Virus record (IMG/VR): IMGVR_UViG_3300046522_000316
Coordinates: 250,290 to 314,289 of that record
DNA: 64,000 bases
Strand: one strand, 5' to 3'
Source: a virus
Lineage: Duplodnaviria > Caudoviricetes
Under the pieces are notes generated by a model. It did no database searches, was not told where the DNA came from, and saw only the letters and a program-made list of their open reading frames with translations. A program made the position numbers and the translations under genes. This document shows positions 13,172 through 14,970 of the stretch, piece by piece. Positions within the stretch are counted from its first letter, which is position 1; every line of letters starts with the position of its first letter.

Positions 13172-13777
13172 TTATTGCGCTGGCTTTTTGCTCATGTCGT
13201 ACAGGCCTTGGTCTTTGCCGGTTTCGAACGAAGTTGCGGTACGCTCGTTCATCAGCGGCGCGTATTTGTCCGGGCCATCACCGCAACCGATTTCCAGTTC
13301 AGCACTGCCCATGATCGCGATCACTTGTTTGTTCGGGAACGTGCGGCGATACATACACGCTGCCGTTTTGCGATCCGTCATCAACTTTTCTTCGTGCGTG
13401 AATTTGTCACGACCTTGGTCGATCAGATTCACGATTTTCTCGGCCAGCGCTTGCGAAGCCGGGATATTGTTTTCACGCAGGAAAAGCACAGTCGCTTTCA
13501 TACCTTCGGCACCGGAACGCAACTTGATTTGTTCGTTCACGGTTTTACGAATGTCTTCGACGTTCATGTCTTTGACGCCGATGGCTTCTTGCACCTTCTG
13601 GCTCAGGTTCGACAGAACGGCCTGACGCGATTTGTTCGCGCCGACGATCCCGGCTTCCTGACGCACGACCGTGTTATTGATGCTGACTACCCAAAGCACC
13701 AGTGCAATAACGAGGCCGATGGCGACCATAGCGCCGACCGAGATAAAACCGCCTTGTTTCGATTTCATTATTTCCAT
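13172..13777 (-). CDS. LemA-like membrane-anchored helical protein with prepilin-like N-terminus
   Basis: Single N-terminal TM, then SINNTVVRQEAGI...LSN..Q; R..F...Q/E..L.D.K...Y...FP pattern of LemA-like proteins; N-terminus MKSKQGGFISV. Confidence 0.6.
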   Translation of the reverse strand: MEIMKSKQGGFISVGAMVAIGLVIALVLWVVSINNTVVRQEAGIVGANKSRQAVLSNLSQKVQEAIGVKDMNVEDIRKTVNEQIKLRSGAEGMKATVLFLRENNIPASQALAEKIVNLIDQGRDKFTHEEKLMTDRKTAACMYRRTFPNKQVIAIMGSAELEIGCGDGPDKYAPLMNERTATSFETGKDQGLYDMSKKPAQ

Positions 13778-13783
13778 TTTCCT

Positions 13784-13888
13784 TTAGTGGGTACAGCTTT
13801 TGAGTGCGAACAACGCAACGCCGATAATCGCCGCAACGATCAGCAGTTCGATCAGCGTGAAGCCTTTAGATTTCTTTGGAGATTTCAT
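13784..13888 (-). CDS. 34-aa type IV prepilin-like micro-peptide
   Basis: Below ORF-track cutoff; hand-translated MKSPKKSKGFTLIELLIVAAIIGVALFALKSCTH*; complete class III signal (basic leader, G|F, E+5); GGA upstream; fits the 122-nt gap between two genes. Confidence 0.8.
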   Translation of the reverse strand: MKSPKKSKGFTLIELLIVAAIIGVALFALKSCTH

Positions 13889-13899
13889 AACGGTTCCAG

Positions 13900-14970
13900 T
13901 TAGATAAAACCGAACTTCCGATGGCGCCGACCGTAGGCGTTACGTCTGTCCAGTATATAGTTTACAGTTAATGACGGGATCACCAGAATTGCCAGCAGCG
14001 ACAACGCAACCAACCAGTATGGCGGATCGTATTCGTCTTTCAGGAAGTCGTAACGTCCGAGGTCTTCGCGTTGGAAATACTGAAACGCACTATCCAGCGA
14101 TTCGATATATTTCGCCGTGTCGTAACGATCCAGTTTCACCGCGTTGACATGCATCAGGTTGGAAAAGTTGTAGCCTTGCGGATCGGTCAAGTTATCAGCC
14201 GACCGGGTAAACGAATTCGCGTTGATAACCCGGCCTTCTTTATCCAGCCGCATGACCACCACAGCATCGTTTTTCTTGCCGCCTTTCCACTTGCTTTTCA
14301 GCGCGTAATAAAAACCTTTGAAGTCGGTTTCTTCACGCAGTGCAATGACCATCACGTTAACGCCGTGCATCGGCCCCCAGCGCTTTTGTGCCACGTTCAA
14401 CTGGCGCGACAATTCGCGTTGGTCAACTTGCGGCGTGTTGGAGAATCCACGCTGCACTTTGAAGCCTGCGTAAACGTGCGGATATTCCGGCAACCAACCT
14501 TTGTACTCTTCAGCGGCTTCGCGGTCGATCATCACCGTTTGTTCGCTCACGTTCTGGAAATTCAGAAAGCGTTTGCTGGCGGTGTACGGATCGCCTATTT
14601 TCGTGTTGGTGTAAATCTCCGGCGCACGAATGGATTGGTGCGTGTATTCGCTGAATTTGTCACCGTCGATATCCGACACAACATCCCAGCGCCAGCGTGG
14701 AATTTCGCGGGTGCAGGTTTTCGTGTTGCCTTGGGAATCTTTTCCGCAATCGTAGCTTTCAGTTTCTGGATCATAAACACGTTTTTTCTCCGCGACAGAA
14801 CCGCTCAACAATTGCAGGTCGGAAGCCTGCCAATACATCGGCCCGTAGTAAACTGCACACGACACGATCACACCGACAAGAAAGCACAGGCCAGATGCCG
14901 CCCAATCGTGTTCCCTGTGTTGCCAATAGGCCGCAACCAAAAGGGCTGCGAAGAGATACGCAAAAATCAT
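13900..14970 (-). CDS. multi-pass membrane protein with periplasmic TPM-like domain
   Basis: Two N-terminal TMs and one C-terminal TM; YALKSKWKGGKKNDAVVVM resembles the TPM W..G...N motif. Confidence 0.6.
   Translation of the reverse strand: MIFAYLFAALLVAAYWQHREHDWAASGLCFLVGVIVSCAVYYGPMYWQASDLQLLSGSVAEKKRVYDPETESYDCGKDSQGNTKTCTREIPRWRWDVVSDIDGDKFSEYTHQSIRAPEIYTNTKIGDPYTASKRFLNFQNVSEQTVMIDREAAEEYKGWLPEYPHVYAGFKVQRGFSNTPQVDQRELSRQLNVAQKRWGPMHGVNVMVIALREETDFKGFYYALKSKWKGGKKNDAVVVMRLDKEGRVINANSFTRSADNLTDPQGYNFSNLMHVNAVKLDRYDTAKYIESLDSAFQYFQREDLGRYDFLKDEYDPPYWLVALSLLAILVIPSLTVNYILDRRNAYGRRHRKFGFI

Follow-up and report, generated by a model that had tools for sequence, protein, structure and literature searches.

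Type IV pili are major receptors for phages, and both type IV pili and the T2SS serve as colonisation factors; the known phage inhibitors of pili target PilB, PilC, PilZ or PilS. In a complete type IV pilin or pseudopilin, a full alpha1 helix (~53 residues) precedes a globular beta-sheet head. The leader of a class III signal peptide stays on the cytoplasmic side upon insertion, prepilin peptidase requires Gly-1, and Glu+5 together with the alpha1-N helix contacts both the assembly platform and the core of the filament.

Truncated PilA-like proteins (P-PilA), comprising the N-terminal ~60 residues, have been described in six virulent Pseudomonas phages (PMC12952977). Two hypotheses have been put forward for their action, namely incorporation into pili without the phage-binding sites or a block of assembly (PMC12952977; preprint 10.1101/2024.03.29.587342, March 2024; Cell Reports 2026). 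The concept of subunit mimicry is therefore not new, since it is already in print for the ~60-residue phage PilA (PMC12952977). The same work describes prophage-encoded FimU mimics, which are built into pili and block phage adsorption (PMC12952977). Two precedents concern very short membrane peptides: PfsE, an inner-membrane peptide of 30 residues, binds PilC and thereby blocks pili (PMC8764522), and in Caulobacter a 17-residue pilin helix alone cut the susceptibility to a pilus phage by 77% (PMC7196804). Our literature search found no functional study of phage pilin stubs, and neither the jumbo-phage comparative review nor the PaBG paper mentions pilins, LemA or TPM.

A headless prepilin encoded by a jumbo phage

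The window, by which we mean the whole 64-kb stretch of DNA analysed, comes from a jumbo phage whose relatives are Pseudomonas phages HRDY3 (313 kb) and Lu11 (280 kb) and, at a greater distance, PaBG. The longest contig encoding the same mini-prepilin protein measures 314 kb, and the sequencing runs that contain window DNA come from soil, rhizosphere, plant and food metagenomes. An earlier note on this DNA had proposed an ORF with a prepilin-type class III signal, and the ORF is found at exactly the position given there (Table 1), with a product of 34 aa, MKSPKKSKGFTLIELLIVAAIIGVALFALKSCTH, as translated from the minus strand of the window. The product scores 37.9 bits against PF07963 (N_methyl), with an E value of 1.1e-9 and a curated Pfam threshold of 21.2, and 31 bits against TIGR02532, for which the NCBIfam cut-off is 16.3 and three relatives reach 26-31 bits. 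The motif is, as had been claimed, of the type recognised by prepilin peptidase, with Gly-1, Phe+1, Glu+5 and an apolar stretch. When defined strictly as G-[FM]-[TS]-[LI]-[IVL]-E followed by at least 12 apolar residues, it is found a single time in the six translated frames of the 64-kb window and in none of 100 shuffles. The N_methyl motif of the mini-prepilin is the only one in the window, and a complete relative (G001) likewise has a single one.

Table 1. Mini-prepilin ORF, its parts and its flanking features in the window
Feature	Position in window	Strand	Basis
Upstream neighbour, 356-aa TPM-like membrane protein, phrog_2087	13900..14970	minus	PHROG E 5e-68
Spacer, 11 nt, with GGAA Shine-Dalgarno-like element 5-6 nt before ATG	13889..13899	minus	Sequence
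Mini-prepilin CDS, 34 codons + TAA	13784..13888	minus	ATG start, ORF list, profile scores, same-slot homologues
Class III leader MKSPKKSKG, 9 residues, net charge +4, Gly-1 last	13862..13888	minus	Sequence
Predicted mature peptide, 25 residues	13787..13861	minus	Phe+1, Glu+5, Gly+14, apolar to +20, K-S-C-T-H end
Spacer, 15 nt, with AGGAAA ribosome-binding site of the LemA-family gene	13769..13783	minus	Directly after the mini-prepilin stop
Downstream neighbour, 198-aa LemA-family protein with N-terminal membrane anchor, phrog_1383	13172..13768	minus	tblastn, PHROG E 1.6e-43

The statement that the chain ends after KSCTH and is headless is also borne out, since the stop codon can be read directly from the sequence at mature position +25 and leaves no room for the alpha1-C helix or a globular head. 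Of the parts of a complete pilin, the mini-prepilin has only the signal and alpha1-N, and the equivalog models that we applied (GspG, GspH, ComGC, PilA and others) match its first ~20 positions only, far below their cut-offs. Moreover, no pilus or T2SS assembly genes adjoin the ORF, whose neighbours encode TPM-domain and LemA-family proteins. The mini-prepilin is therefore a member of the N_methyl domain family but not a complete pilin. The ORF had been described as hidden and missing from the track, yet the exact protein is present in the IMG and Logan gene calls, which place it on two further contigs, and IMG names the relative in the phage L009 (see below) [quoted passage not shown].

A lipobox has the form [LVI]-[ASTVI]-[GAS]-C. 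We considered the L-K-S-C tail of the mini-prepilin as a possible lipoprotein signal and rejected it, because Lys at -2 misfits the lipobox and L009 lacks any Cys.

The flanking genes

The upstream 356-aa protein has two N-terminal helices and one C-terminal helix in the membrane. Its AlphaFold model is of moderate quality (mean pLDDT 66.6), and in Foldseek the soluble domain of the model matches the TPM-domain structures 2kw7, 8c7i (Psb32), 2kpt and 3ptj (AtTLP18.3) with probabilities of 0.89-1.0, the single-domain matches having a TM of about 0.49 by target. The downstream gene was taken to start at 13768, as called in L025. The model of its 198-aa product matches LemA-family clusters of the AlphaFold DB with a TM of 0.62 and gave no clear match in the PDB fold search; homologues in phrog_1383 are annotated as "virion structural protein" in Lu11, HRDY3 and PaBG. 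The TPM/LemA gene pair is found in hundreds of large phages, among them Ackermannviridae, ICP1, Erwinia jumbo phages and others. TPM/LemA membrane gene pairs are also common in bacteria, and in PaBG (L003) the pair lies directly upstream of the endolysin gene. A scan for promoters and terminators near the mini-prepilin, with a set that excludes jumbo-phage promoters, returned none above shuffles. In HRDY3, two annotated acyl carrier protein genes (L001:6844-7813) lie a few kb from the syntenic region.

Two further roles for the LemA-family protein were considered and rejected. A split pilin, with the LemA protein as the head, is at odds with the wide occurrence of the LemA family without the stub and with its own membrane anchor, while the LemA-like N-terminus is not a conserved prepilin signal, given that its G-G-F is not kept in relatives and no N_methyl match is obtained. 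We also observed that the mini-prepilin leader in one relative (L031:3009-3031) and the 5' end of the LemA gene in the window (13743-13765, minus strand) are identical at 22 of 23 nt, both segments encoding K-S-K-Q-G-G-F. This identity points to an exchange or duplication between adjacent gene starts, which may explain why the LemA-like protein of the window starts with MKSKQGGF where relatives have R-G-S or R-G-A.

Distribution and conservation of the mini-prepilin

A complete 312-kb IMG/VR phage (L009) carries a prepilin ORF in the 31-35-aa range in exactly the same slot, which is the single N_methyl match of that genome. A HMMER search of 1.84 billion representatives added three more short relatives (34, 35 and 31 aa), each located between TPM-like and LemA-like genes on jumbo-phage contigs, with one version present on 21 contigs. 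Five distinct versions of 31-35 aa are thus known from one slot, between the TPM-like and LemA-like genes of Lu11/HRDY3-like contigs. All five have Gly-1, Phe+1, Glu+5 and a basic leader, and the mature length is 25-26 residues throughout. The C-terminus follows A-L-[FL]-A-L-K-[SQ]-C in four of the five, with Cys+23 kept, while L009 ends in Y-K-A-T-H and has no Cys.

The core K-G-F-T-L-I-E-L-L-I-V differs between the window and L009 by six synonymous and no non-synonymous changes, and dN/dS between the window and the other versions lies at 0.07-0.33 (Nei-Gojobori), synonymous sites being close to saturation. The upstream TPM-like protein goes down to 38% identity over this divergence. Other samples yielded contigs with 95-97% identity to the window, which span the region undeleted and keep the mini-prepilin ORF intact, showing within it one synonymous change and the conservative Ala19Val as the sole protein change. 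In L009 and L032, the mini-prepilin starts within the stop codon of the upstream gene (TGATG), pointing to translational coupling. From these comparisons we conclude that the mini-prepilin is a conserved protein-coding gene under purifying selection in a fixed slot. Selection acts on pilin-specific residues, beyond hydrophobicity alone, because Gly-1, Phe+1 and Glu+5 are invariant and the mature length is fixed at 25-26. The mini-prepilins make up a small new family that is bound to a single slot in Lu11-like jumbo phages.

Conservation of the ORF in related phages, which the earlier note had named in advance as one of the points on which its claim could fall, holds for the set of relatives just described but does not extend to Lu11, HRDY3, PaBG and several metagenomic relatives. 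Whole-record searches detected no N_methyl motif in Lu11, HRDY3, PaBG and two complete IMG/VR relatives, and the mini-prepilin is also missing in the metagenomic relatives L005, L006, L008 and L011. The slot is a 31-nt gap in HRDY3 and is empty in PaBG. In Lu11 it is occupied by an unrelated, soluble-looking ORF (gp350, L002:2003-2188), 61 aa as annotated, and a Lu11-like metagenome fragment has an unrelated ORF in the same slot, as in Lu11 (L012:1268-1504). The occurrence of an unrelated ORF and of the mini-prepilin in one slot marks the TPM-LemA slot as a site of accessory-gene turnover. In a tree built from the two flanking proteins, L009 and the window phage, which both carry the gene, do not group as sisters, so that at least two changes are required, either the loss of an old gene twice or a transfer between related phages. 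The mini-prepilin is an accessory, dispensable gene.

When metagenome contigs are aligned to this region of the window, their depth spikes at 13804-13867 only, in the motif DNA. Many of the contigs in this spike are short and come from other organisms, matching 45-48 nt at 80% or more before they diverge. Since these short contigs look like the 5' ends of bacterial pilin genes, the motif DNA resembles captured host pilin DNA. An additional metagenomic protein of 118 aa (P0012) has two tandem prepilin motifs, one at its pilin-like N-terminus and a second near the C-terminus, where K-G-F-T-L-I-E-L-L-I-V is followed by L-K-S.

Pilin-like genes in other phages

A tblastn search for related ORFs in other phages, which had been suggested as a follow-up, retrieved 116 records with the motif among 50,697 phage records. 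The pilin-like products include those of Aeromonas phages Aeh1 (ORF040c, 28 aa), AsFcp_4 (unannotated ORF, 28 aa) and PX29 (gp038, 31 aa), Delftia phage PhiW-14 (gp119, 44 aa), Pseudomonas phage PaeM_G1 (orf026, 59 aa, which probably belongs to the P-PilA group), Vibrio phages F86 (VPHF86_0060, 61 aa) and KVP40 (KVP40.0030, 66 aa), Xanthomonas phage PhiXhv-15 ("type IV pilus subunit", 99 aa), Acinetobacter phage Acibel004 (gp97, 107 aa) and Synechococcus phage ACG-2014f ("pilin", 127 aa). The three shortest stubs, those of Aeh1, AsFcp_4 and PX29, have mature lengths of 25-26 residues and lie amid nucleotide-metabolism genes; the stubs of the Vibrio phages are likewise among nucleotide-metabolism genes, away from LemA. 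The prepilin motif is common to six PHROG families, one of which is labelled "pilin" under host takeover. The recurrence of the same truncation across unrelated lineages and gene contexts suggests a host-directed action that is independent of the neighbouring genes and aims at a target which these hosts have in common.

Synechococcus phage S-CAM7 (NC_031927.1, MT586120.1), which has been reported as a strong binder of host pili (2025 preprint), likewise encodes a pilin-like protein that begins with this motif; NC_031927.1 annotates the gene as "pilin".

Proposed action and alternative explanations

We propose that the carrier, a jumbo phage of the Lu11/HRDY3 type that presumably infects Pseudomonas in soil or the rhizosphere, would produce a "headless" prepilin that acts on the pilus machinery of its host. 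By analogy with pilin biology, the mini-prepilin would enter the inner membrane with its basic leader in the cytoplasm, and host PilD/XcpA would cut after Gly9 and N-methylate the Phe. No match to Peptidase_A24 was found in three complete relatives, including a mini-prepilin carrier, so any processing would rely on host PilD. What would remain is a 25-residue membrane helix of the same kind as the part of a pilin that touches the platform and packs the filament core. The mature helix could then act as a subunit mimic on host type IV pili and/or the T2SS pseudopilus, by competing for PilD, by occupying the platform (PilC/PilNO or the Gsp counterparts) or by entering the fibre as a defective subunit. 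By any of these routes the infected cell would be left without functional pili, and the benefit to the phage might be that pilus-dependent competitors are excluded, or that progeny are spared from loss on infected cells and debris.

We favour subunit mimicry, to which we give about an even chance, because the residues conserved are those needed for the handling of pilins and go beyond mere hydrophobicity. Several observations weigh on it. Many relatives do without the gene. The mini-prepilin shares an operon with a "virion structural" protein, which suggests middle or late expression and fits poorly with classical early superinfection exclusion. A 25-residue helix without alpha1-C and head makes stable incorporation into a fibre doubtful, and the mini-prepilin does not have Pro22, which the Aeromonas-phage stubs keep, a point that we count against mimicry. 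More tentatively, bare alpha1-N peptides of 25-26 mature residues might constitute a general, convergent phage weapon, that is, minimal pilin mimics matured by PilD which shut down type IV pili and/or the T2SS; if so, they would represent a new mechanism of receptor removal in lytic phages of Pseudomonas and Aeromonas.

An unlikely alternative is that the peptide is a small subunit which joins the TPM-domain and LemA-family proteins encoded on either side, the pilin sequence merely providing a helix and, mostly, a periplasmic Cys. In this phage group the peptide always lies between the TPM/LemA genes and is translationally coupled to them; all three products are predicted membrane proteins, four of the five versions keep Cys+23, and conserved cysteines, probably periplasmic, are present in both neighbours. 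However, L009 has no Cys, hundreds of phages and most close relatives have the TPM/LemA pair but lack the peptide, a generic helix needs no invariant Gly-1, Phe+1 and Glu+5, and the Aeromonas and Vibrio stubs lie amid nucleotide-metabolism genes instead of beside LemA. A complex prediction for the TPM-domain protein, the LemA-family protein and the mini-prepilin had a score of 0.00 with a partner pLDDT of <50 and speaks neither for nor against binding.

It is distinctly unlikely that the helix acts as a signal, being read by a sensor kinase (PilS; compare PleC) as a full pool of unassembled pilin, upon which pilin transcription would be turned off and the motility and surface behaviour of the cell would be reprogrammed instead of the machine being jammed. 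In favour of this reading, the 17-residue pilin helix signals via the first transmembrane helix of PleC and lowers both pilus-phage susceptibility and attachment (PMC7196804), intramembrane sensing of PilA by PilS is cited in PMC6058289, and the lytic Pseudomonas phage protein PIT4 targets PilS and abolishes twitching (PMC10714779). A transcriptional route would nonetheless be slow relative to a lytic cycle, and the recurrence of stubs in Aeromonas and Vibrio phages would demand similar sensors in those hosts.

We regard as very unlikely a holin-like or toxin-like peptide that depolarises or permeabilises the inner membrane, or times lysis. Such an action would suit a single-helix peptide of about 30 residues, and the TPM/LemA pair of PaBG adjoins an endolysin gene, but there is no adjacent endolysin in the window, no likeness to known holins or spanins was found in Pfam and PHROGs, and the conservation of prepilin-specific residues would be left unexplained. 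That the ORF is a functionless 5' fragment of a captured bacterial pilin gene which survived by chance is scarcely credible, for although its motif DNA resembles host pilin 5' ends, with matches of 45-48 nt at 80% or more in short bacterial contigs, and the gene is lost or missing in many relatives, it is under purifying selection with many synonymous changes, its frame is intact with a mature length of 25-26 in five diverged versions, and it is also intact in natural variants.

Returning to subunit mimicry, if a 25-residue helix matured by PilD does disable type IV pili or the T2SS, no smaller natural inhibitor of these machines would be known, its route would be distinct from that of the inhibitors of PilB, PilC, PilZ and PilS, and it could serve directly as a lead peptide in studies of how pili are assembled. 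Natural variation to guide experiments is available in the five versions, all of which keep Gly-1, Phe+1, Glu+5 and their mature length.

Comparison with known systems

Among phage-encoded pilin-like proteins that work through the host machinery, P-FimU (PMC12952977) protects from pilus-dependent phages by mimicry. However, P-FimU, which temperate phages encode, is a folded minor pilin of full length and replaces FimU in a working pilus, whereas the mini-prepilin is headless and is encoded by a lytic jumbo phage. PfsE of Pf4 (PMC8764522) is comparable as an inner-membrane peptide of 30 residues with a cytoplasmic N-terminus that suppresses type IV pili and excludes pilus-dependent phages. It differs in having no prepilin motif, in its YxWGW aromatic cluster and in its binding to PilC, and has no sequence relationship to the mini-prepilin. 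If the mini-prepilin works at all, its action would resemble that of PfsE or of the truncated P-PilA proteins. The Caulobacter peptide CIP, the first 17 mature residues of a Flp-type PilA (PMC7196804), is comparable in that a bare helix is active and lowers susceptibility to a pilus phage, but it represents a piece of a type IVc pilin of the host that was used in experiments, with no natural stand-alone gene, and its effect is mediated by PleC.

The best sequence match in the PDB is Geobacter PilA-N ("Geopilin domain 1", 61 mature residues), whose N-terminal 20 residues are nearly identical to those of the mini-prepilin and which is one of the shortest natural pilins whose structure has been solved; it differs in keeping the whole alpha1 helix. 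PilA-N assembles with a separately encoded PilA-C head. Nothing comparable to the PilA-C head was seen at the mini-prepilin locus.

Closer counterparts are other phage stubs. Like P-PilA, the mini-prepilin originates from a virulent Pseudomonas phage, combines a prepilin signal with an N-terminal helix, is headless and invites the same hypotheses. Unlike the ~60-residue P-PilA, it is about half as long, with 25 mature residues and alpha1-N only, and it is found in a Lu11-like jumbo lineage in another gene context. The similarity is confined to the first ~20 mature residues, and the shared PHROG matches (phrog_10597 and phrog_13280) cover the first 20 positions only. The stubs of the Aeromonas T4-like phages (Aeh1 ORF040c, PX29 gp038 and AsFcp_4) have the same architecture as the mini-prepilin, with 25-26 mature residues, and the GenBank notes for Aeh1 and PX29 read "similar to N-terminal part of ... 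pilin". In contrast to the mini-prepilin, they belong to unrelated phages of unrelated hosts, are located between nrdB and nrdD, keep Pro22 and lack the K-S-C tail. With mimicry already in print and equally short stubs annotated in Aeromonas phages, the mini-prepilin belongs to a known kind, and is one more well-supported example in the annotated and discussed class of phage pilin stubs.
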